This document shows, piece by piece, positions 14,937 to 25,407 of a stretch of 31,292 nucleotides of DNA. This DNA comes from Oscillospiraceae bacterium (GTDB taxonomy: Bacteria; Bacillota; Clostridia; Oscillospirales; CAG-272). A model generated the notes under the pieces. It saw only the letters and a program-made list of their open reading frames with translations, did not search any database and was not told the origin of the DNA. The translations under genes and the position numbers were made by a program. Numbering within the stretch: position 1 is the stretch's first letter; each line of letters opens with the position of its first letter. The stretch is taken from the NCBI GenBank assembly GCA_015065395.1, contig SVQJ01000001.1:1-31292 (forward strand), in the 5' to 3' direction.

Positions 14937-14963
14937 AAAAAATAGTTGAAAGGAATTAAAAAT

Positions 14964-17081
14964 ATGAAAAAAACATTAGGCGCAATTTTAGGAGTATTTC
15001 TTGCACTTGTAACGGTGTTCACCTCAGTCCCCTTTACTGTAAGCGCGGCAGACAGTGTTGAGCTTATCGGTGAGGTGCAGGGAAGCATGCCTGATATCCG
15101 TATCAGCATTGATTCGGGCTATAGCCTTGACACCATCCACAAAGATAAGGATGAAAAGATCCGTACTAAGGTTTCCGTTTCGGGCGCATGGGACTCTTCC
15201 TTCAATTTCAGCTCCCTCGGCGCTGAGCTTAAGACCCGCGGAAACTCATCATGGCTCATGGATAAGAAGCCCTATCAGATCAAGTTTGATTCAAAAACCG
15301 ATATGTTCGGCATGGGCAAGGCTAAGAAGTGGATCCTTCTTGCAAACTACGTTGACGGCTCCTTTGTCCGCAATAAGATCATTTTCGACCTTGCGGAAAA
15401 TATCGGTATGCCCTACACGATCAAGTCTGTTTTCGTAAATCTTTACATAAACGGAGACTATAAAGGCGTCTATCAGCTTTGCGAAAAGGTTGAGATCGGT
15501 GATAACAGAGTCCCCCTTGAGGACGATTTCGGTGTTATAGCGGAAATGGATGCGGCAACCCGTCTTGAGGGCGAGCAGTTCTATTTCTATTCAAGCGTAA
15601 CCGGCAAGCCCTTCGTTTATAAGGAATATAACACAGATTTTGAGGATGCCCCCGCCGAGGACGTAGCGGCGGTGCGAAGCTTCTTTGAAAACAGAATAAA
15701 TACCCTTGAAAGCGAGCTATATAATAACGGAAAAAACTGGGAGCTTGTTGAGTCTCTCATCGATATCGATTCCGTTATCAAATTCTATTTTATAAATGAG
15801 CTTTGCATGAATGCTGATGCATGCTTTGCCAGCACCTTCTTCTATATCGACGGTAAGGACGATATTCTTCACATGGGCCCCTTATGGGACTATGACCGTA
15901 TTTTCGGCTATTACGATTATGTCGGAGGATATGTGCAGGGAACCGAGGAGGATTTCTTAAAGAATATCACCGATTGCACGGATAAGCAGAGAGTCGAGTG
16001 GTATAAGATGTTCTTCCAGTATCCCGAGTTCGTAGAGCGCGTAAATGAGCTTTACTCAGAGGTCATCAAGGATGAGTTTGATGCTGAGCGCATCAATGCA
16101 ACAATCGATGCATATCAGAAGCTCCTTTACAACAGCCTTATGAGAAATTACGTGGACGAGGGGTGGGCGCTCTTCCACAATAACTCCGAGGCTGAGTTCT
16201 TCTCAAACCGCACAGATGCAACAAACTATCTGAACTTCACAACAAATTATCTTAAGAATAATATTAAGGACAGAATTGAATATCTCAATTCCGCATACGG
16301 AAAATACGTTCCCGCACTCTTCTATCAGCAGAACGACGGCAGAGTATACAGCGGTGGCTCAATGACAGACAGCGCCAATCTTTCAAGCCTGGAAATGAGC
16401 CTTGACAGCTCTATCGACGGCGGTATAAGCTACATCGGATCAAGTCCTTCCGGAACGATCCCTGCCGTGGCTGACGGAGAGCGTCTCTCCGGTGTGGATA
16501 TTTCAGGATTAAAGATAAGTCTCACGGGTAATGTGAAAAATTATTTCTCCGTTCAGTACAGGGTCTGCGTAAACGGAAACTGGAGCTCTTGGGTGTCCAA
16601 CGGAACGTTGGCAGGCTCCAGAAGCGGAAGCCCGATAAAGAGGATACAAGTACGGCTTGTAGAGAAACAGGATGTTGTCCTCGGCACGGTCAGCTTTGAT
16701 TGCGCCGGTGTGGCTCAGATGGATAGTGTCACCGATGTTGTTGGAGATGTGGTCGTTCTTCCCGAAATGAGTGCTGAAGGCTATATCTTTAACGGCTGGT
16801 ATGCAGATCCCCTCTATAACGAGAAAATAGAAAGTATCACCGTAAGTGAAGGGGATACAACTGTTTTCGCTTCCTTCACAGAGGAAAGACCTGTGATCGT
16901 CGGTGATATCGACGGGGATGAGAATCATAGCTCAAGGGACGTAAATTTGCTTATGAAATGCGTTGCCGGCGCCACTGTTCTGACGGAAAAGCAGATGACG
17001 GCGGCTGATATGAACGGCGACGGCCTGGTTACCGCAACTGATGTGAATATGCTTATCCGCAAGGTGGCGGGAATACTTTGA
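14964..17081 (+). CDS. Secreted CotH-family kinase with ChW-like region, InlB-B/Listeria-Bacteroides-like repeat and C-terminal dockerin
   Basis: Signal peptide. CotH motifs KTRGNSSW, KKPYQIKF, WILLANY, YKGVYQLCEK and GPLWDYD. YRVCVNGNWSSWVSNG resembles ChW repeats. GYIFNGWY repeat. Duplicated Ca-binding loops GDIDGDENHSSRDVNLL and ADMNGDGLVTATDVNML. Confidence 0.85.
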   Translation: MKKTLGAILGVFLALVTVFTSVPFTVSAADSVELIGEVQGSMPDIRISIDSGYSLDTIHKDKDEKIRTKVSVSGAWDSSFNFSSLGAELKTRGNSSWLMDKKPYQIKFDSKTDMFGMGKAKKWILLANYVDGSFVRNKIIFDLAENIGMPYTIKSVFVNLYINGDYKGVYQLCEKVEIGDNRVPLEDDFGVIAEMDAATRLEGEQFYFYSSVTGKPFVYKEYNTDFEDAPAEDVAAVRSFFENRINTLESELYNNGKNWELVESLIDIDSVIKFYFINELCMNADACFASTFFYIDGKDDILHMGPLWDYDRIFGYYDYVGGYVQGTEEDFLKNITDCTDKQRVEWYKMFFQYPEFVERVNELYSEVIKDEFDAERINATIDAYQKLLYNSLMRNYVDEGWALFHNNSEAEFFSNRTDATNYLNFTTNYLKNNIKDRIEYLNSAYGKYVPALFYQQNDGRVYSGGSMTDSANLSSLEMSLDSSIDGGISYIGSSPSGTIPAVADGERLSGVDISGLKISLTGNVKNYFSVQYRVCVNGNWSSWVSNGTLAGSRSGSPIKRIQVRLVEKQDVVLGTVSFDCAGVAQMDSVTDVVGDVVVLPEMSAEGYIFNGWYADPLYNEKIESITVSEGDTTVFASFTEERPVIVGDIDGDENHSSRDVNLLMKCVAGATVLTEKQMTAADMNGDGLVTATDVNMLIRKVAGIL

Positions 17082-17088
17082 TATAAGT

Positions 17089-17122
17089 AAAAGGTCTGAC
17101 AAAAGTTTTGTCAGACCTTTTT
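17089..17122. terminator. Probable bidirectional intrinsic terminator
   Basis: 16-bp perfect inverted repeat AAAAGGTCTGACAAAA-G-TTTTGTCAGACCTTTT just after the CotH gene stop. Confidence 0.8.
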
Positions 17123-17137
17123 CAAATTTATGGGTCG

Positions 17138-17387
17138 ACGGATGGATATAAGGCTTTCTCGTTCTTTCCTTGAAAGGAAAGAACCAAAGGAACTTTAAGA
17201 AGACAAAGATTACGAAAAAGGCAAAAAGGCCCTAAAAAGAGGAATGCTCACAAAAATGAACGAGCTCATTTTTGTGAGCATTCCTCTTTTTAGGTTAGGG
17301 CACCTGGGCGCTGCCTTTTGCCTTGCAAGATTCAGCTAAACCCTTATGTAAAGTTTTTTGCAGAGCTTTTTTTCAAAAAAGCGACCG
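17138..17387. repeat. Structured intergenic repeat, copy 1 (MITE/REPIN-like)
   Basis: 52 bp (17155-17206) identical to 23332-23383 and collinear similarity over the whole length. Terminal hairpins plus a central perfect 29-bp stem (17231-17294). Confidence 0.9.
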
Positions 17388-17516
17388 CCTCTTTTGTATA
17401 AACCGAAGTTTTACAATTAATGTATAATTGTATCAGCTTTATAGAAATAATACAGTCCTTCGAAAAAAACAAGGAAGAAAAATGGAGATACGACGCGAAA
17501 AAATTTGTTTTATTTA

Positions 17517-17545
17517 TTGATTTTGTAAAGGCTTGGGAGTATAAT
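17517..17545 (+). promoter_or_regulatory. Sigma-A promoter of the nag operon
   Basis: TTGATT, 17-bp spacer, TATAAT. Confidence 0.65.
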
Positions 17546-17636
17546 AATTATAAGGGGAAATTTGGACTATTTTCCTGTGGATCCATAATATTTTGCAAAT
17601 TTTTGTGCCGCTCTTGCGGCAGGATGGAGAGAATAT

Positions 17637-18770
17637 ATGAAATGTATCATTAACGGACAGATCGTTCTGCCCCGCGAGGTCGTTTCGGGAATGGCGATCA
17701 TTTTCGATGAGAAGATCGAAAAGATCACACCCGTTGAAGGTCTTGATCTTTCAGCCTATGAAGTGATCGATGCCGAAGGTAAGTATGTTGCTCCCGGCCT
17801 TGTGGATATCCATATCCACGGATATCTCGGATGCGATACGTCCGACGGAGATCCCGACGGTATCCGTAAGATGTCTGCGGGTCTCGTAAGGAACGGCGTA
17901 ACAAGCTTCTGCCCCACCACCATGACAGTATCCGTTGAGGAGATCGAAAAGGCATTCAACGATGCAAGAGAGGTAAAGGCTGAGGGCGCAAAGAACGGCG
18001 CAAAGGTAGTTGGCATAAACTGCGAGGGTCCCTTTATCAATCCCTCAAAGAAGGGTGCGCAGGCAGCGGAGCATATCAAGCGTCCCGACTGCGAGTTTAT
18101 CAAGAAGCATGCAGATATTATCAAGGTATATACAATCGCTCCCGAGGTGGACGGCGGTCTTGAGTGCATCGAGGGCGTATTTGCCGACGGTCGCGTAGTT
18201 TCCTCCATGGGTCATACAAATGCAACTTTTGATGAGGCAAACGCAGGTATTGCAAAGGGTGTTCGTCATACAACACACCTTTTCAATGCTCAGACAGCTC
18301 TTATGCACCGTAACCCCGGTGTTGTAGGCGCGGCTCTTTCCGATGAGAATGTAAGCGTTGAGCTTATCTGCGATACATTCCACGTAAATCCCGGCCTTTA
18401 TAAGATGGTACATAAGCTCAAGGGTGACAAGCTCTGCATCATAACAGACTGTATGAGAGCAGGCGGTATGCCCGACGGCGACTATACTCTCGGCGGTCAG
18501 CCCGTTAAGAAGACAGGCATCCAGTGCCTCATGCCCGACGGCACTATCGCAGGAAGCGTTCTTGACCTTAATAAGGGCGTTAAGAACTTCTATGAGCATG
18601 CAGGCGTGACCCTTGCAGAGGCATTTGCAGCAGCAAGCCTTAATCCCGCAAAGGCTATAGGCGAGGCAGATTCCATTGGCTCCCTCGAGGTAGGCAAATG
18701 CGCTGATATTATTATTGTTGACACTGATTTCAATGTTATAAAAACTATTATCGGAGGTATCGAAAAATGA
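17637..18770 (+). CDS. nagA: N-acetylglucosamine-6-phosphate deacetylase
   Basis: PGLVDIHIHG, EGPFINP, GHTNA, THLFNA, ICDTFHV, ITDCM and IAGS motifs. Confidence 0.95.
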   Translation: MKCIINGQIVLPREVVSGMAIIFDEKIEKITPVEGLDLSAYEVIDAEGKYVAPGLVDIHIHGYLGCDTSDGDPDGIRKMSAGLVRNGVTSFCPTTMTVSVEEIEKAFNDAREVKAEGAKNGAKVVGINCEGPFINPSKKGAQAAEHIKRPDCEFIKKHADIIKVYTIAPEVDGGLECIEGVFADGRVVSSMGHTNATFDEANAGIAKGVRHTTHLFNAQTALMHRNPGVVGAALSDENVSVELICDTFHVNPGLYKMVHKLKGDKLCIITDCMRAGGMPDGDYTLGGQPVKKTGIQCLMPDGTIAGSVLDLNKGVKNFYEHAGVTLAEAFAAASLNPAKAIGEADSIGSLEVGKCADIIIVDTDFNVIKTIIGGIEK

Positions 18771-19558
18771 ACGCAAATGAAATCAAGGCTTATTCCAACG
18801 GCAAGAAGAACGGTGTAAAGGTTTTCGTGGCAGGTAGCTACGAGGCTCTTTCCAAGAAGGCAGCATCCATCGTTGCAGGTGCTATCAGCAATAAGCCCAC
18901 ATTTATGCTCGGTCTCGCAACAGGAACATCTCCCCTCGGTCTTTATTCTGAGCTTGCAGAGCTTAACCGCCAGGGCAGAGTTGATTTTGCAAACGTGACC
19001 ACATACAATCTTGATGAGTACTATCCCATCGATCCCGCAAACGATCAGTCCTACCGTTATTTCATGAACAAAAATCTTTTCAATAACGTAAATATCGATA
19101 TGGACAGAACTCACGTTCTTTTCGGACAGGCTCCCGATTGGAAGGCTGAATGCGCTCAGTACGACGCAGAGATCGAGGCTGCAGGCGGAATCGATCTTCA
19201 GGTCCTCGGTATCGGTAATAACGGTCATATCGGCTTCAACGAGCCCGGTAATGACTTTATTTGGGAAACTCACAGAGTTGAGCTCACAGAGAGCACTATC
19301 GAGGCAAACTCCCGTCTCTTCAACAGTGCGGATGAGGTTCCCCGTGCAGCACTTTCCATGGGTATCGGCAATATCATGTGCGCAAAGCAGGTCGTTCTCG
19401 TAGCTAACGGCCCCAAGAAGGCTGAGGCTATCAAGGCAGCTCTTGAGGGCCAGATCACTCCCTGGTGCCAGGCTTCCATCCTCCAGCTCCATCCCGACGT
19501 AACCTTCATCCTTGATGAGGATGCAGCAAGCGCTCTCGAAGAGTACAAGGCTATCTGA
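18767..19558 (+). CDS. nagB: Glucosamine-6-phosphate deaminase
   Basis: LGLATGTSP, LDEY and LGIGNNGHIGFNEP motifs; ATGA overlap with nagA. Confidence 0.96.
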   Translation: MNANEIKAYSNGKKNGVKVFVAGSYEALSKKAASIVAGAISNKPTFMLGLATGTSPLGLYSELAELNRQGRVDFANVTTYNLDEYYPIDPANDQSYRYFMNKNLFNNVNIDMDRTHVLFGQAPDWKAECAQYDAEIEAAGGIDLQVLGIGNNGHIGFNEPGNDFIWETHRVELTESTIEANSRLFNSADEVPRAALSMGIGNIMCAKQVVLVANGPKKAEAIKAALEGQITPWCQASILQLHPDVTFILDEDAASALEEYKAI

Positions 19559-19594
19559 ATTTAACATTTACTGTTACCGAAAGGAATCAAAATA

Positions 19595-20962
19595 ATGATC
19601 AAAGCTATTCTTGACCCCCAGTTCCGCCCCGCGGCAGTGGTTATCGCAGAGTTTAAGAAGGCAGTGGCAGAGGCAGGCGGAAATCCCCTGGTTATCGCTG
19701 TTGAGAGAAACAAGGGCTATGTTTCCACCTTCGCTATCGACGTATTTAAGGACGGCACAGGCCATGACGAAGAAAACTACGAGGTTATCGAGCGCTTGGT
19801 TAAGACTCTTCTCTGGATCTACGGCGGTTATAAGGTAACCATCGCAGGCTCAAAGAAGATCTACGAGGGAATCGCCAATGCTTATTGCAAGGGTGGCGCG
19901 AGAGAGTTTGATGCAGACTTTATGGCTCGCGTTTACGAGGCTCCCTTTGAAGTGCTCTACTGTGAGAATGTTGCAGATGCTCCCAAGGAAAATCAGGCAG
20001 CAGCTCCCGTAGGCCGTCATCTTGACGGTTGCCGTATCGGCTTTGATGCCGGCGGATCCGACAGAAAGGTTTCCGCTGTTATCAACGGTGAGAGCGTATA
20101 CTCCGAGGAGGTTGTATGGTTCCCCAAGCTTCAGTCCGATCCCGATTATCACTATCAGGGCATTCTCGAGGCTATGAAGACCGCGGCAAGCAAGATGCCC
20201 CGCGTTGATGCTATCGGAGTTTCTTCTGCCGGTGTTTATATCGACAATAAGATCATGGTTGCTTCTCTCTTCCTTAAGGTTTCCGATGAGGACTTTGAGA
20301 AGAAGGTAAAGACCATGTATATCGACGTTGCAAAGGAGATCGGTGAGGATATTCCCATCGAGGTTGCAAACGACGGTGACGTTACCGCTCTTGCAGGCGC
20401 TATGGATCTTAACGATAATAAGGTCCTCGGTATCGCTATGGGTACCAGCGAGGCAGCAGGCTACGTTGACGGTAACGGCAACATCACCGGCTGGCTCAAC
20501 GAGCTCGCATTTGTTCCCATCGACTTCTGCAAGGACGCTATCGTTGACCCCTGGGCAGGTGACTACGGCACAGGTGCTATGTACTTCTGCCAGGAGGGCG
20601 TTATCAAGCTTTCTCCCGCAGCAGGCATCGAGCTCGATCCCGCACTTTCTCCCGCTGAAAAGCTCAAGGTCGTTCAGGGCCTTATGGCACAGGGTGACGA
20701 GAGAGCTGCAAAGATCTATGAAACTCTCGGCGTTTACTTCGGCTATTCCATCGCTTATTATGCAATGTTCTATGATATCAAGCATCTTATCATCATGGGC
20801 CGTGCAACCAGCGGCGATGGCGGTACCATCCTTCTTGAGAATGCTAAAAAGGTTCTCGCTGAGGAGTATCCCGAGCTTTCCATCAACCTCTATATTCCCG
20901 ATGAGAAGAGCCGCCGCGTAGGTCAGTCCGTTGCAGCAGCTTCTCTTCCCAAGATCGGCTGA
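19595..20962 (+). CDS. Atypical ROK-family protein, candidate amino-sugar kinase
   Basis: IGFDAGGSDRK, GVSSAG, NDGDVTALAG and GIAMGTSEAAGY ROK/ASKHA motifs; ~140-aa N-terminal extension; directly downstream of nagAB. Confidence 0.75.
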   Translation: MIKAILDPQFRPAAVVIAEFKKAVAEAGGNPLVIAVERNKGYVSTFAIDVFKDGTGHDEENYEVIERLVKTLLWIYGGYKVTIAGSKKIYEGIANAYCKGGAREFDADFMARVYEAPFEVLYCENVADAPKENQAAAPVGRHLDGCRIGFDAGGSDRKVSAVINGESVYSEEVVWFPKLQSDPDYHYQGILEAMKTAASKMPRVDAIGVSSAGVYIDNKIMVASLFLKVSDEDFEKKVKTMYIDVAKEIGEDIPIEVANDGDVTALAGAMDLNDNKVLGIAMGTSEAAGYVDGNGNITGWLNELAFVPIDFCKDAIVDPWAGDYGTGAMYFCQEGVIKLSPAAGIELDPALSPAEKLKVVQGLMAQGDERAAKIYETLGVYFGYSIAYYAMFYDIKHLIIMGRATSGDGGTILLENAKKVLAEEYPELSINLYIPDEKSRRVGQSVAAASLPKIG

Positions 20963-20976
20963 ATTATTTGATAAAT

Positions 20977-21008
20977 AAAATGGCTGTCGCATTAGCGGCA
21001 GCCATTTT
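20977..21008. terminator. Bidirectional terminator between convergent genes
   Basis: AAAATGGCTGTCGC-ATTA-GCGGCAGCCATTTT (one G-U pair), with A and T tracts on both sides, between the ROK and kinase stop codons. Confidence 0.85.
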
Positions 21009-21011
21009 TGT

Positions 21012-23144
21012 TCAGTTGATCACAAGACTTTCTATAATAACGGAGTTTACGGGGAGACCGGTATCGATTCCTTCTTCATCGTATTGCGTTTGAACCGCAA
21101 CAAGTGCTTCAAGAACGTCAAATCCGTCAACTACCGCACCGAATGCGGCATACTTTCCGTCAAAGTCGTATGCACATTCGTCGGAAAGCCATATAAATAT
21201 TCCGGTCGGATCGGAATAAAGAGGGTTCTTGGCTTTGGACATGGCGATAACCCCCTTTGTGTTGGAGAGAGGATTGTAAAAGCCGTTGTCGCTAAACTCT
21301 CCTTCCACCACCGTTGCGGGACCGTTGCCCGTTTTCACTCCGTAGTAATCACCAAATCCCAAATAATAGTCGTCAAAAACGTGGAAAATGGGAAGACCGT
21401 CGTAATACCCACCCTCTGCCAGCTCAACGAAGTAGCTTACGGTTTCGGGAGCAATGTGTGGATAAAGTTCAAGGGTTATGGTTCCGTAATCCTTAACGTT
21501 GATTTGAGCCTCAATGGGATCGGAATAATCTGCCTCGGGCTTTGCAAAAACGGTGAGCTGAGTTACGGTTCTTTTGCCGTTTCTTTGAATCACAACGGAA
21601 ATTGTGTCCCCGATCCTGCACTGTGTAAAGACGTTCAGAAGATCGTCGGCGGTATTAATTGCCGTGGAATTTGCACTTTCAATCTTATCGCCTTTTTTTA
21701 TGTATTTGTCATTGTATCCCTTTATAACGCTCATAATATATACGCCGCGCTGATTGGAATTGTAAAGAGTATAAGCATCTTCGGCTTCAAATAATGCAAA
21801 GCTGATGCCAAGAAAGGGAACACCCGTCTCCTCGGGGGAAGGCCCTTCTGAATCTGCCGTGTCGTCTGTTTGATCTGTTTTATCTGTTTGCTCGTGGCTG
21901 TCGGCGCTTGAGGTATCCTCAGGTGAAGCCGTTTCCCGATCATTTTCTGTGGTTATAACGGTCTTATCATCCGGACCATCATCGTTGCCTTGCGAAAAAT
22001 AATATATAGCAAAGCCGATCCCACATATTAGTGCAATTAACACCAAAATGAGAATAAAGGCAGATCCCTTGTTTCTTTTTTGTCCGCCTGCATTTTCGGT
22101 GTGGATGCTTTGGTCGAATGCTTGGGCAGATACATCCGGGTTAACGGTCACCGTCTGCGTCGAACGGTCTGCAACGGTCATGGTGGCGGATTTGTCCGTT
22201 ATGTCGTCGATCAGTTGCCCGATGCTTTGGTATCTGTCGGCGGCTGCAACAGCTAATCCCTTCATAAGCGCGGTTTCGATCTCAGGCTTGATGGAGATCC
22301 CAAGCTCCGAGGGCCTTTTCAGCGTGTCGTTAAAAATTCGCTCGTTGGATTCAGGGGGAGTGATTCCCGTTATACATTTGTATAGGGTTGCGCAAAGAGC
22401 ATAAATATCAGTCCAGGGCCCCTGCTCACCGTGGGTGCGGTATTGCTCCTCGGGAGCATATCCGGGCTTCAGCATAACGGACAGACTTTTGTTGGCATCA
22501 GCGGAAACATCTCTCGCGGCACCGAAATCAAGCAGCTTAAGCCCCCCAAGAACCAGGCGGATGTTGTCGGGGCTAATGTCTCTGTGTATCAGATCCTGGC
22601 TGTGGATCTTGGAAAGAGTGTACATAAGGGGCAGGAGCAGATCGATGGCGTGATCCGCACTCATAACACCGTTTTGCTTTATGTATTCCTTCAGATCCAT
22701 GCCCTCAAGATATTCCATAACGATGTAAGCGGTGTTGTTAGCCTCGAAAAAGGACTTGACCGAAACAACGCCCCGTTCTCCGGAGAATTTTGCAAGGATC
22801 CTTGCTTCCTTCAAAAATCTTTCTCTGCCTTTTTCAAAGAAGTCCGACCGGTCCTGATTTTTGCTGCAGGTGATGCTTGCGGAGGCGCTGTTGTTGCGGT
22901 TGACATATCCGCCGGGGAAGAATTCCTTGACTGCAACCTTTGTGCCTGAATCAAGCTCCAGACCCATATAGGTAATACCGAACCCGCCTTCACCGAGTGA
23001 GGCGCCTATGAGAATGTTGCCGTTAAGCACGGTCCCGGGCAAAAGATGATATTCGGGAACAGTGATGCTTGTGCTCTTGTGGCAGAAGGGACAGCTCTTG
23101 TCTCCCGGTGCTATCTCGTTCAGACAGTTAAAGCAGTATCTCAT
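21012..23144 (-). CDS. Membrane Ser/Thr protein kinase: Zn-ribbon, Hanks kinase, TM, acidic linker, PDZ, degenerate cyclophilin domain
   Basis: CFNC...CPFC; GEGGFG, VAVKE, HRDISPDN, DFG, GYAPE and DIYA motifs; TM AFILILVLIALICGIGFAIYYF; PDZ PFLGI...GVYI...GDKI...GDTISVVIQRNG; cyclophilin-like GTITLELYPHIAPETV...DGKYAAFG; AGGAGG RBS. Confidence 0.9.
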   Translation of the reverse strand: MRYCFNCLNEIAPGDKSCPFCHKSTSITVPEYHLLPGTVLNGNILIGASLGEGGFGITYMGLELDSGTKVAVKEFFPGGYVNRNNSASASITCSKNQDRSDFFEKGRERFLKEARILAKFSGERGVVSVKSFFEANNTAYIVMEYLEGMDLKEYIKQNGVMSADHAIDLLLPLMYTLSKIHSQDLIHRDISPDNIRLVLGGLKLLDFGAARDVSADANKSLSVMLKPGYAPEEQYRTHGEQGPWTDIYALCATLYKCITGITPPESNERIFNDTLKRPSELGISIKPEIETALMKGLAVAAADRYQSIGQLIDDITDKSATMTVADRSTQTVTVNPDVSAQAFDQSIHTENAGGQKRNKGSAFILILVLIALICGIGFAIYYFSQGNDDGPDDKTVITTENDRETASPEDTSSADSHEQTDKTDQTDDTADSEGPSPEETGVPFLGISFALFEAEDAYTLYNSNQRGVYIMSVIKGYNDKYIKKGDKIESANSTAINTADDLLNVFTQCRIGDTISVVIQRNGKRTVTQLTVFAKPEADYSDPIEAQINVKDYGTITLELYPHIAPETVSYFVELAEGGYYDGLPIFHVFDDYYLGFGDYYGVKTGNGPATVVEGEFSDNGFYNPLSNTKGVIAMSKAKNPLYSDPTGIFIWLSDECAYDFDGKYAAFGAVVDGFDVLEALVAVQTQYDEEGIDTGLPVNSVIIESLVIN

Positions 23145-23197
23145 AAAAATGAAACCTCCTTTTTATATGATACTGATATTCGTATAATATATGATAT

Positions 23198-23225
23198 ATT
23201 ATAACATATAACCGCTGTATTTCAA
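23198..23225 (-). promoter_or_regulatory. Sigma-A-like promoter of the kinase gene
   Basis: On the minus strand: TTGAAA, 16-bp spacer, extended TG-n-TATAAT. Confidence 0.6.
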
Positions 23226-23315
23226 TGAAAAAAGAACATTTTTTTGTCAAAATGTAACATGAAGGGTGGTTATCAAATTTCGGTTTGACGTGGCGGTGAA
23301 GTAAACCTTTTCTTT

Positions 23316-23595
23316 ACGGATGGATATGGATTTTCTCGTTCTTTCCTTGAAAGGAAAGAACCAAAGGAACTTTAAGAAGACAACGATAGTGGAAAGGCAA
23401 AAAGGCCCTAAAAAGAGGGAATAAGGGGAAAATGAGCTCGTTCATTTTCCCCTTATTCCTTCTTTTTAGGTTATGGCACCTTCGGTGCCTCAGCCAAAGC
23501 AGATTTCTGCTTTGGCGACACCTTTTGCCTTGCATGATTCAGCTAAACCAATTTCTTAAAGTTTTTTGCCAAGCTTTTTTTCAAAAAAGCGGCCG
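23316..23595. repeat. Structured intergenic repeat, copy 2 (MITE/REPIN-like)
   Basis: Collinear with 17138-17387, same orientation. Central 29-bp stem at 23407-23470 (one G-U) and extra hairpins at 23475-23516. Confidence 0.9.
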
Positions 23596-23610
23596 TTTTT
23601 TTTATGAATC

Positions 23611-24102
23611 TTATTCAACGATGGTAACGCTTACCATTCTCTGATCTCTCATGGGCTTGTCCTGCATATTTGTGGGAACTGACGCGATCTCGTCAACGGT
23701 CTCGATTCCCTCGATGACCTTACCGAAAGCGGCGTACTGACCGTCAAGGAATGTTGCGTCTGCGTGGCAGATGAAGAACTGGCTGGATGCGCTGTTGTAG
23801 TTCTGGCTTCTTGCCATGGAGATAACGCCTCTCTTGTGGGAAAGAGTGTTGTTAACACCGTTGAGAGCGAACTCACCAACGATATTGTGGCCGCTGCCAC
23901 CGATGCCGATGCCCATGGGGTCGCCGCCCTGGATCATGAAGCCTGCAATAACGCGGTGGAAGATAAGTCCGTCGTAGAAGCCCTCGTTTGCAAGGTTCAC
24001 GAAGTTTTCAACGGTCTTGGGTGCAATTTCGGGATAGAGCTCGAGGGTGATATCGGAGCCGCTTTCCATTTCGATCTTTGCCTTGATAATATTGTTTTCC
24101 AT
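23611..24102 (-). CDS. Cytoplasmic cyclophilin-type peptidyl-prolyl isomerase
   Basis: LELYPEIAPKTVENF, FHRVIAGFMIQGGD, SMAR, SQFFI and LDGQYAAFG motifs; catalytic Arg and Gln intact; no signal peptide. Confidence 0.95.
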   Translation of the reverse strand: MENNIIKAKIEMESGSDITLELYPEIAPKTVENFVNLANEGFYDGLIFHRVIAGFMIQGGDPMGIGIGGSGHNIVGEFALNGVNNTLSHKRGVISMARSQNYNSASSQFFICHADATFLDGQYAAFGKVIEGIETVDEIASVPTNMQDKPMRDQRMVSVTIVE

Positions 24103-24125
24103 AATTTTTCCTCTTCAGATCTTTA

Positions 24126-25343
24126 TTATTTTTTATCGCTTTCGGCACTTTCGCCGATAACCTTAACGTATTCAATGGTAATAGTTTCTGTGGGAACGGA
24201 CTTTTCGGTGCCGTAAACGTTATACTCCACCTCAACGTCACCGATCTCCTCCACAACGTCCATGCCGTCGATAACCTTTCCGAAGGCGGCGTACTTTCCG
24301 TCAAGGCTTGCCTTGTGATCGCCGGAGAGACAGATGAAGAACTGGCTGGATGCGGAGTTTGGTGATGTAGCTCTTGCCATGGAGATAACTCCCTTGTCAT
24401 GGGAAAGGGTATTGTTAAATCCGTTGGTCAAAAACTCGCCCTTGATGTTCTCATCGCTGCCGCCGCTTCCGTTACCCTCGGGGTCGCCGCCCTGGATCAT
24501 GAAGCCCTCAACGACGCGGTGGAAGGTAAGCCCGTCATAAAAGCCCTCGTTTGCAAGGCTTACGAAGTTTTCAACGGTTTCGGGAGCGATTCCGGGGTAA
24601 AGCTCGAGAGTGACAGTGCCAAAGTCCTCGACACTCATCTCGACCAGTACAGGCTCTGCATCGGGATCGGGAGCACTTTCCAGCTCCTTTACGCCTGCCT
24701 TGTTTTCAGTGTCCTCGTATGTGTCGGAAACTCTTATATAGCCGACCTTAATTGTTTCCTTGGGAACGGATTTCTCGGTGCCGTAGGAGTTATAATCAAC
24801 CTCAACCTTTGCTATCTCGTCCACAACGTCCATGCCCTTGATCACCTTACCGAAGGCAGCGTAATTTCCGTCAAGACTTGCTTTGTAATTACCGGAGTCA
24901 CAGATAAAGAACTGGCAGGAGGCAGAATCCATGCTGTGGCTTCCTCTTGCCATGGAGATAACTCCTCTGTCGTGGGATAAGGGATTGTAAACTCCGTTTG
25001 CCGAAAACTCACCCTTGATGTTCTTTCCGCTGTTGCCGGTACCGTTGCCCTCAGGGTCGCCGCCCTGGATCATAAAGCCTTTAACGACTCTGTGGAAGGT
25101 AAGACCGTTGTAGAAATCATCAAGAACGAGACCGACGAAATTTTCAACGGTTATGGGAGCAATATTGTGGTAAAGCTCAAGGGTGATGAGGCCGAAGTCC
25201 TCAACGTACATCTCAACTTCAACGATGTCCTGTATCTCGTCCACGCTCTTGATGGCATCCGGCTTGTCCTTGGGCTTTGAATCACAGGAGAACAGGCAAA
25301 GGACGGTGCAGAGGCATAAAATAACAGAAATAAGTTTTTTCAT
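24126..25343 (-). CDS. Lipoprotein with two tandem cyclophilin PPIase domains
   Basis: MKKLISVILCLCTVLCLFSC lipobox-like signal; two complete domains, each with FHRVVxGFMIQGGD and QFFI. Start 25343 chosen from the signal peptide, RBS and promoter position. Confidence 0.9.
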   Translation of the reverse strand: MKKLISVILCLCTVLCLFSCDSKPKDKPDAIKSVDEIQDIVEVEMYVEDFGLITLELYHNIAPITVENFVGLVLDDFYNGLTFHRVVKGFMIQGGDPEGNGTGNSGKNIKGEFSANGVYNPLSHDRGVISMARGSHSMDSASCQFFICDSGNYKASLDGNYAAFGKVIKGMDVVDEIAKVEVDYNSYGTEKSVPKETIKVGYIRVSDTYEDTENKAGVKELESAPDPDAEPVLVEMSVEDFGTVTLELYPGIAPETVENFVSLANEGFYDGLTFHRVVEGFMIQGGDPEGNGSGGSDENIKGEFLTNGFNNTLSHDKGVISMARATSPNSASSQFFICLSGDHKASLDGKYAAFGKVIDGMDVVEEIGDVEVEYNVYGTEKSVPTETITIEYVKVIGESAESDKK

Positions 25344-25378
25344 ATCAAAGTATATCCTTTCGGTTACATAACAGCTTA

Positions 25379-25407
25379 ATTGTACCAAAATCCACCGATT
25401 AAGTAAA
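25379..25407 (-). promoter_or_regulatory. Sigma-A-like promoter of the cyclophilin genes
   Basis: On the minus strand: TTTACT, 17-bp spacer, extended TG-n-TACAAT. Confidence 0.55.

Follow-up and report, generated by a model that had tools for sequence, protein, structure and literature searches.

An abundant, elaborately folded interspersed repeat at convergent gene ends in an uncultured Oscillospiraceae bacterium

The 31,292-nt stretch analysed here (the window; contig SVQJ01000001.1 of assembly GCA_015065395.1, C73 in our contig numbering) comes from an uncultured gut Oscillospiraceae bacterium and holds two copies of a non-coding repeat, about 265-320 bp long, that is dispersed over 151 places in the genome. 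The repeat family is real and abundant, its fold is uncommonly ornate and well supported, and it represents a known kind of element, not a new kind of system; we consider it probable that it belongs, as a lineage-specific and non-autonomous mosaic repeat, among the interspersed sequences exemplified by REP, BIME and SPRITE elements and by miniature inverted-repeat transposable elements (MITEs). We propose that the unit was copied to its roughly 150 places by an enzyme acting in trans, that insertion would proceed without target-site duplication, and that copies persist only where stopping transcription is harmless, which would be behind the 3' ends of genes and above all between convergent genes; the restriction to 3' ends would arise because the unit carries a strong two-way hairpin. 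A model had earlier annotated the window from its letters, without database searches, and had described the two copies as a non-autonomous mobile element or structured non-coding RNA (ncRNA). This original prediction overlooked the outer arms of the unit, its terminator-like central hairpin and its strong bias toward convergent gene ends.

The genome is a metagenome-assembled genome (MAG) of 1.79 Mb in 240 contigs and is 78% complete. Searching it with BLAST and two rounds of nhmmer gave 122 nhmmer matches with E < 1e-20, 69 of them full length, and merging yielded the 151 repeat places (about 69 full-length and about 80 partial), which together occupy 31.6 kb or 1.76% of the assembly. The element had been called probably high-copy on the strength of the two copies in the window, and the whole-genome search bears this out. 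The true copy number is higher than the count because many contigs end inside a copy. Pairwise identity between copies averages 81%, with a nearest-neighbour median of 90% and a maximum of 97.6%, and the family is therefore old and without sign of a very recent burst in this genome.

Alignments of the consensus and of the flanks reveal a unit built from two inverted arms around a central hairpin. From left to right, an outer arm (P0), a variable spacer, a hairpin (H1), the left strand of a pairing called P1, a conserved unpaired stretch and the left strand of a second pairing, P2, lead up to the central hairpin P3; the right half consists of the hairpins P4 and P5, the right strand of P2, a further conserved unpaired stretch, the right strand of P1, the hairpin H2 and the right outer arm. 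The outer arms are sharply bounded and about 24 nt long, the left one starting with TCAAATT and the right one ending with AATTTGA, and together with the longer inverted arms inside them they form terminal inverted repeats; some copies lack the outer arms. P4 and P5, both small GC hairpins, are present in most copies, and there are variants without P3-P5 or without P4-P5 as well as many solitary left or right ends. Taken as a whole, the unit forms an inverted doublet, folding back on itself by way of P0, P1 and P2, and a full copy reaches -164 kcal/mol (z = -17 versus shuffles), folding nearly as well on the other strand. The left hairpin of congeners is often the same T/A palindrome as the right hairpin; the arms are therefore true inverted repeats, in which the left hairpin has drifted in this species.

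This architecture is supported by covariation in 44 sequences from this genome and at least five other species, evaluated by pair counts on a structure that was set by hand because RNAalifold on a plain MAFFT alignment recovered H1 and P3 only. Of the cells, 92% are paired versus 78.5% in shuffles, cells changed on both sides number 303 versus 87 ± 8, compensatory change is seen in 32 of 56 pairs, and pairing falls to 41-55% once the partners are slid by 1-3 columns. P4 and P5 covary both within the genome and between species, where their stems have been wholly replaced with the two hairpins kept. Conservation is distributed very unevenly: across 56 copies the entropy is 0.09 bits in H1, 0.14 in H2, 0.08 at the top of P3 and about 0.2 in P1 and P2, and it rises to 1.3 bits in the middle of P3 and about 1.0 in the outer arms. 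Such a profile is unlike neutral decay, so that either the lineages that were copied are strongly constrained or the host keeps the motifs.

The long P3 stem behaves like a DNA palindrome, which points to its upkeep at the DNA level. Its pairs in the 56 copies are 97.6% Watson-Crick, with 0.3% G-T and 0.9% A-C, the comparison across species gives 21 G-T cells versus 18 A-C, and most copies have zero mismatches although the 12-nt middle of the stem varies from copy to copy. The 6-nt loop reads ACGAGC in 34 copies and the exact reverse complement, GCTCGT, in 17, and at least four stem types carry both loop orientations. Quasi-palindrome correction provides a general precedent for arm exchange or template switching, and DNA-level exchange or template switching between the palindrome arms, combined with selection for pairing, would best account for the perfect pairing, the variable middle and the flip-flop loop. 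P4 and P5 lean the opposite way, with 31 G-T versus 12 A-C cells on the plus strand and with UUCG- and GNRA-like loops, the counts being small and the sequences related. The earlier suggestion of a structured ncRNA is thus upheld by covariation as far as the secondary structure goes, and not as regards acting as RNA rather than as DNA.

Full copies are found predominantly between convergent genes, at their 3' ends. Among the 60 with two neighbours, 38 lie between convergent, 20 between tandem and only 2 between divergent genes, compared with 156, 371 and 189, respectively, for all spacers longer than 50 nt (chi-square p = 8.5e-16), which means that a full copy resides in 24% of the convergent spacers. 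Orientation is unbiased in tandem contexts (11 versus 9), and where a gene ends toward a copy, the distance is below 30 nt in about half of the cases. The base of P3 has an A-tract on its 5' side and a T-tract on its 3' side, the form of a predicted bidirectional terminator, and a terminator scan of the sequences classed P3 of both window copies as intrinsic-terminator-like, with the same stem of copy 1 listed for both strands, TTTTTAGG coming after it. Applied to 120 other genomes of the family from 97 genera, a covariance model of the core retrieved nothing convincing and ordinary terminators only; its best matches in other genera are plain two-way terminators between convergent genes, which fits the terminator-like reading of P3. 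The terminator-like hairpin alone can explain the placement of the unit, because a unit carrying it would harm operons or the spacers between promoters and genes. The hairpins of the unit are often the first structure past a stop codon, and they probably end or stabilise the neighbouring transcripts. A scan for promoters inside the unit found no conserved one. We also considered P3 to be the pre-existing terminator of each locus around which the arms had been inserted, and rejected this given that its base, top and loop are conserved across copies.

The distribution of the repeat in the genus is patchy: nine of 24 sampled congeners have it, and flanking-gene identity places these carriers closest to the present genome. 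Searched in one genome each of 185,579 species, an exact pattern of 25 interior bases occurs in six MAGs only, labelled Candidatus Avispirillum, Oscillospiraceae or Clostridia, and has zero matches in viral contigs. As far as found, the repeat is restricted to one subclade of Candidatus Avispirillum (Oscillospiraceae), and in the literature on Avispirillum no paper treats repeats. Its loci differ between species, and the closest congeners lack it at the orthologous positions, in keeping with the mobility originally suggested for it; the orthologues of the nagA and cyclophilin loci in 5-7 congeners are without it. Upstream of nagA in two of them (G011, L053:650-1500; G007, L052:640-1400), a conserved non-coding stretch of about 700 nt stands in place of window copy 1, and the G011 locus also holds a Gut-1 RNA (RF01706, 52 bits) and a run of short hairpins spaced by GTGATG.

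Outside the genus, the only part of the repeat found is its right end, a module of about 33 nt made up of the right strand of P1 and H2 (AAAGTTTTTTGC, 3-4 nt, T/A palindrome). The exact module is present in 1-4 copies in five of 400 other Oscillospirales genomes, which belong to four other families, and a reversed control pattern had zero matches. At 89% identity it occurs four times in Anaerotruncus colihominis NZ_CP094683.1 (23880-24294, our locus L152:5635-6047), where it terminates a GC-rich mosaic repeat; elsewhere (L153, L155-L158, L161, L163, L165) it forms the end of unrelated mosaic repeats rich in GC, or is found within other repeat units or in 5' regions, often near GTAG-tagged REPs. 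Viral contigs and plasmids contained no full copy of the repeat, and the end module alone was seen in one Anaerotruncus record. Judged from this distribution, the module is old and reused, and it is a candidate protein-binding site. In one congener (G004, contig C41; L079:740-810 and 2545-2615), H1-like hairpins, each with the P1-left motif after it, precede start codons by about 25 nt, in the 5' leaders of a GTPase-like gene and a radical-SAM gene and not at gene ends.

Several observations weigh against a repeat that spread by transposition. No partner transposase was found, and no pair of copies is more than 97.6% alike, which leaves present-day mobility in this genome hypothetical; no exact empty site was found, assemblies of the same species keep both window copies unchanged, and the congener loci that lack the repeat differ too much in their flanks for a junction to be placed. 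Conservation is lower in the outermost arms than in the subterminal hairpins, an unusual state for a transposon with terminal inverted repeats, and the strong conservation of H1, H2, P1 and P2 in copies that are only 81% alike could mean a host-level function outside this account. The context statistics rest on a crude caller that takes the longest open reading frame (ORF) as the gene (1558 genes, 87% coding).

A host-level function is the substance of the alternative that survives best, namely that the unit is a domesticated module, now kept by the host as a two-way terminator, insulator or stabiliser of the 3' untranslated regions (3'-UTRs) of convergent gene pairs. It would explain the conserved motifs, whose conservation is far above overall identity, and the covarying structure retained across species; it also agrees with the share of convergent spacers occupied by a full copy, with the many stop codons so near the unit that they leave no room for a terminator of their own, and with the identity and fixation of both window copies in all same-species assemblies examined. 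E. coli REPs act as terminators and stabilisers in 3'-UTRs (bioRxiv 10.64898/2026.03.23.713779). Against it, the orthologous loci of close congeners manage without the unit, copy 1 directly follows an intact native terminator, the conserved H1, H2 and P1 are not required for termination, and purifying selection against insertions elsewhere accounts equally well for the bias toward 3' ends. We regard domestication as possible, on a tentative footing, and it is compatible with a mobile mosaic repeat as the origin of the family.

As to how copies of such a repeat are made, the unit contains no ORF, and comparison of the flanks of 55 copies agrees with the original prediction in showing no target-site duplication: direct matches between flanks are, at their longest, distributed as in a mismatched-flank control (mean 6.7 nt), nothing is duplicated at the exact ends of 37 end pairs, target duplications of variable or hairpin size are not present for this repeat, and no conserved 4-5 nt target adjoins its ends. 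In the description of the copies as a non-autonomous mobile element, the non-coding nature, the high copy number and the differing loci between species stand, and the mechanism based on HUH enzymes is conjectural.

That mechanism, in which folded single-stranded DNA (ssDNA) would be copied REPIN-like by an HUH tyrosine transposase (RAYT or IS200-type TnpA) recognising the subterminal hairpins, is in our view unlikely. The lack of a target-site duplication, the subterminal hairpins being the most conserved part with the outer ends less so, and the self-folding inverted doublet are all in its favour, and the genome has a RAYT-like ORF (Table 1), with syntenic RAYT-like genes in relatives. This ORF, however, scores below the cut-off of its family, it has no Pfam match, an RNase HI gene follows just downstream of it in the same operon, and neither H1 nor H2 is nearby; the TGAA-loop hairpins proposed as recognition sites do not flank it. 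The Pfam family Y1_Tnp has zero matches in the genome, and its weak RAYT-like matches in relatives track phylogeny, so that they are of no use as a presence-absence profile across the genus. Nor do the ends resemble those of IS200/IS605-derived elements, another origin that had been named, since these have end hairpins on the same strand and a fixed tetra- or pentanucleotide target, whereas the present repeat has inverted motifs and, at odds with HUH copying, no conserved target beside its ends.

The REPs associated with the RAYT-like ORF are GTAG-tagged and GC-rich, unlike H1 and H2. The ORF itself carries an inverted pair of such palindromes in frame, encoding ...VGATIGRP... and ...GRPMVAPT..., and a degraded second copy of it is found at C195:3163-3463. 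Of 57 raw pattern matches in the genome, roughly 25 are such GTAG REPs, some of which (C184:1400-1900, also C200:4790-4990 and C97:520-640) have a conserved tail (ATCTGCACACGAACC...ATTTGA...) and are arrayed in tandem as five or six units of 87 bp. This tail shares its final ATTTGA with the outer arm of the repeat studied here. GTAG-REP tails directly adjoin 6 of about 28 copies of the repeat in one congener, at one side or at both, a point for the HUH mechanism that is countered by 0 of 73 copies in this genome, and adjacency to REPs was accordingly rejected as the means of copying. The GTAG REPs and the RAYT-like gene are a system separate from the repeat.

It is rather improbable that the repeat is a classical MITE, that is, a deletion derivative of an insertion sequence (IS) of the DDE type, the full-length parent having been lost or left unassembled in these MAGs. 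The inverted ends, sharply bounded at about 24 nt and followed inward by longer inverted arms, the absence of an ORF, the high copy number and the existence of subfamilies and deletion variants would all suit a MITE, and a multi-copy IS could be missing because the assembly is 78% complete and breaks at repeats. Conversely, target-site duplications of whatever length were not found, the internal hairpins surpass the terminal arms in conservation, and the interior structure is conserved across species, which a passive MITE core does not need. No longer element with the same ends was found in this MAG or in about 60 loci of relatives, MAGs being assemblies in which repeats come out poorly. One candidate for an autonomous element, C78:12737-13840, was rejected as two partial copies around a phosphoribosyltransferase-like gene, and a pattern search with the outer arms for an element bearing a transposase met truncated copies only.

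A reading that joins several of these ideas, to which we assign a low probability, is that the unit would be copied via extruded hairpins or ssDNA by an HUH/RAYT-like or other enzyme that recognises the near-invariant T/A-rich subterminal hairpins, that the P1-right/H2 module would be an old recognition site common to several Oscillospirales families, and that about a quarter of the host's convergent gene pairs would have the repeat as their standard two-way terminator or insulator; the variable yet always perfect stem and the flip-flop loop would then be footprints of hairpin-based copying. It is very unlikely that the repeat is a multi-copy gene for a structured ncRNA, trans-acting or cis-regulatory, whose function resides in the folded RNA, as the strong covariation, the conserved unpaired junctions, the loop types of P4 and the G-T lean of P4 and P5 on the plus strand are set against the absence of orientation bias relative to neighbouring genes, of a conserved promoter, of a G-U excess in P3 and of any Rfam match, against the truncation of many of the about 150 copies, and against the two strands folding about equally well.

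The Rfam check called for by the original prediction returned 0 matches at the gathering threshold in the window, generic hairpin and miRNA noise only in E-value mode, and no match for the copies of relatives. The closest functional parallel is the SPRITE of pneumococcus, which in the passages of PMC3184786 that deal with it is terminator-like and located at convergent 3' ends; the likeness in placement and in the terminator-like core is one of function and not of homology, the sequences being unrelated and the host standing in a different phylum-level lineage than Oscillospiraceae. The present repeat is about three times longer than SPRITE, to go by those passages, and has long inverted arms with conserved hairpins of their own as well as the extra GC hairpins. 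With the REP, BIME and REPIN elements of Enterobacteria and Pseudomonas it shares a mosaic of hairpin modules at gene ends or between convergent genes, the inverted doublet, the absence of target duplication and the high copy number; it differs in that H1 and H2 are T/A-rich and bear no GTAG or CGTC tag, in that no link to a RAYT runs through H1/H2, and in its size, the unit being much larger than a REPIN. The Correia elements of Neisseria and bcr1 of the Bacillus cereus group, so far as they are described in the sections of PMC3184786 concerned and in general accounts, are likewise bounded by inverted repeats, present in 100-300 copies per genome, co-transcribed with their neighbours and predicted to form stable folds with compensatory changes, but according to the same sources they have target-site duplications (TA and TTTAT, respectively) and known or suspected DDE partners, neither of which was found for the present repeat. 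The family lacks the target duplication expected of a MITE, and the REP tag and RAYT link expected of a REPIN.

The uncultured Oscillospiraceae of gut and rumen are known almost solely from MAGs, and repeats like this one break assemblies; cataloguing the family explains MAG fragmentation and prevents such stretches from being mistaken for small RNA genes. The roughly 70 predicted two-way terminator hairpins, diverse in sequence and equal in structure, could be useful in investigating termination and 3'-UTR control in Clostridia. Handles on the copying of such repeats are provided by the near-invariant end hairpins, the end module found across families and a second repeat that duplicates whole hairpins on insertion (see below).

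The two window copies lie in the same orientation and are 84% identical over 318 aligned columns, including the block of 52 identical bp noted at the outset (17155-17206 and 23332-23383). Their left hairpins and the motif that follows are as first described, the right hairpins are equally in place and show the common motif next to them on the opposite strand, and the AGAA closing the right-end motif is present in copy 2 only, again matching the first description. The nested pairings reported for the interior, AAGGCAAAAAGG with CCTTTTGCCTT around a 29-bp stem, are recovered as well. The extents first given were too short: the outer inverted arms start at 17122 and 23273, and the copies end at 17413 and about 23603 (Table 1).

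Table 1. Positions of the two repeat copies, their parts and associated features (window coordinates unless a contig is named).
Feature	Position	Strand	Remarks
Repeat copy 1	17122-17413	+	Short variant without half of P4 and all of P5; both outer arms present; nhmmer 17128-17410, outer arm from sequence and consensus
Repeat copy 2	23273-23603	+	Interior full-length; about 29 nt extra in left arm; without right outer arm; nhmmer 23307-23606
H1 (left subterminal hairpin), copy 1	17161-17184	+	9-bp arms, 6-nt loop TTGAAA
H1 (left subterminal hairpin), copy 2	23338-23361	+	9-bp arms, 6-nt loop
P1-left pairing box, copy 1	17185-17202	+	Directly after H1
P2 closing helix, copy 1	17218-17324	+	17218-17229 pairs with 17314-17324; encloses P3; 90% paired in alignment
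P2 closing helix, copy 2	23396-23531	+	Arms about 23396-23406 and 23521-23531; encloses P3-P5
P3 central hairpin, copy 1	17231-17294	.	A-tract, perfect 29-bp stem, loop ACGAGC, T-tract; terminator-like on + and -
P3 central hairpin, copy 2	23407-23470	.	Stem middle differs, all changes compensated; loop inverted (GCTCGT)
Small GC hairpins, copy 2	23475-23516	+	P4 23475-23489 (UUCG-type loop), P5 23493-23516
H2 (right subterminal hairpin), copy 1	17365-17382	+	8-bp T/A arms; P1-right box precedes
H2 (right subterminal hairpin), copy 2	23573-23590	+	
Native intrinsic terminator of upstream dockerin/CotH gene	17090-17123	+	Abuts left end of copy 1; context, outside the repeat
RAYT-like ORF	C32:7968-8474	-	NF047646, 66 bits, E = 2.7e-18, cut-off 80 bits; no Pfam match

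Immediately upstream of copy 1 is the intact native terminator of a gene (14946-17081) that encodes, by Pfam matches on the called gene, a CotH-family protein with a C-terminal dockerin, which suggests a cellulosome-type surface system in this organism. Copy 2 is flanked by genes for a Ser/Thr kinase and a cyclophilin, with the cyclophilin stop codon 5 nt away, and it is 100% identical in four further metagenome assemblies. The surrounding region has 3-4 coding repeats of the cyclophilin domain (23611-25388 and 21012-21515; families D1-D5) at a spacing of about 570 nt, in co-oriented genes that adjoin the PDZ/cyclophilin Ser/Thr kinase.

A second, younger repeat of about 255 bp (for example at C182:14090-14346) is also dispersed in this genome. 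Its roughly 50 copies share 93-100% identity, and it is where many contigs break off. The ends are inverted and start with CAGACTGTCGA and CAGCTTGTCGA. Every insertion is into a hairpin, which afterwards flanks the repeat on both sides in its entirety (20-33 bp); this hairpin-sized target duplication of variable length is unusual. Its targets include native terminators as well as the H1 and P5 hairpins and the P3 top of the first repeat, inside copies of which it is found at C43:6409-6720, C71:5514-5820, C134:5870-6175 and C110:19319-19600.

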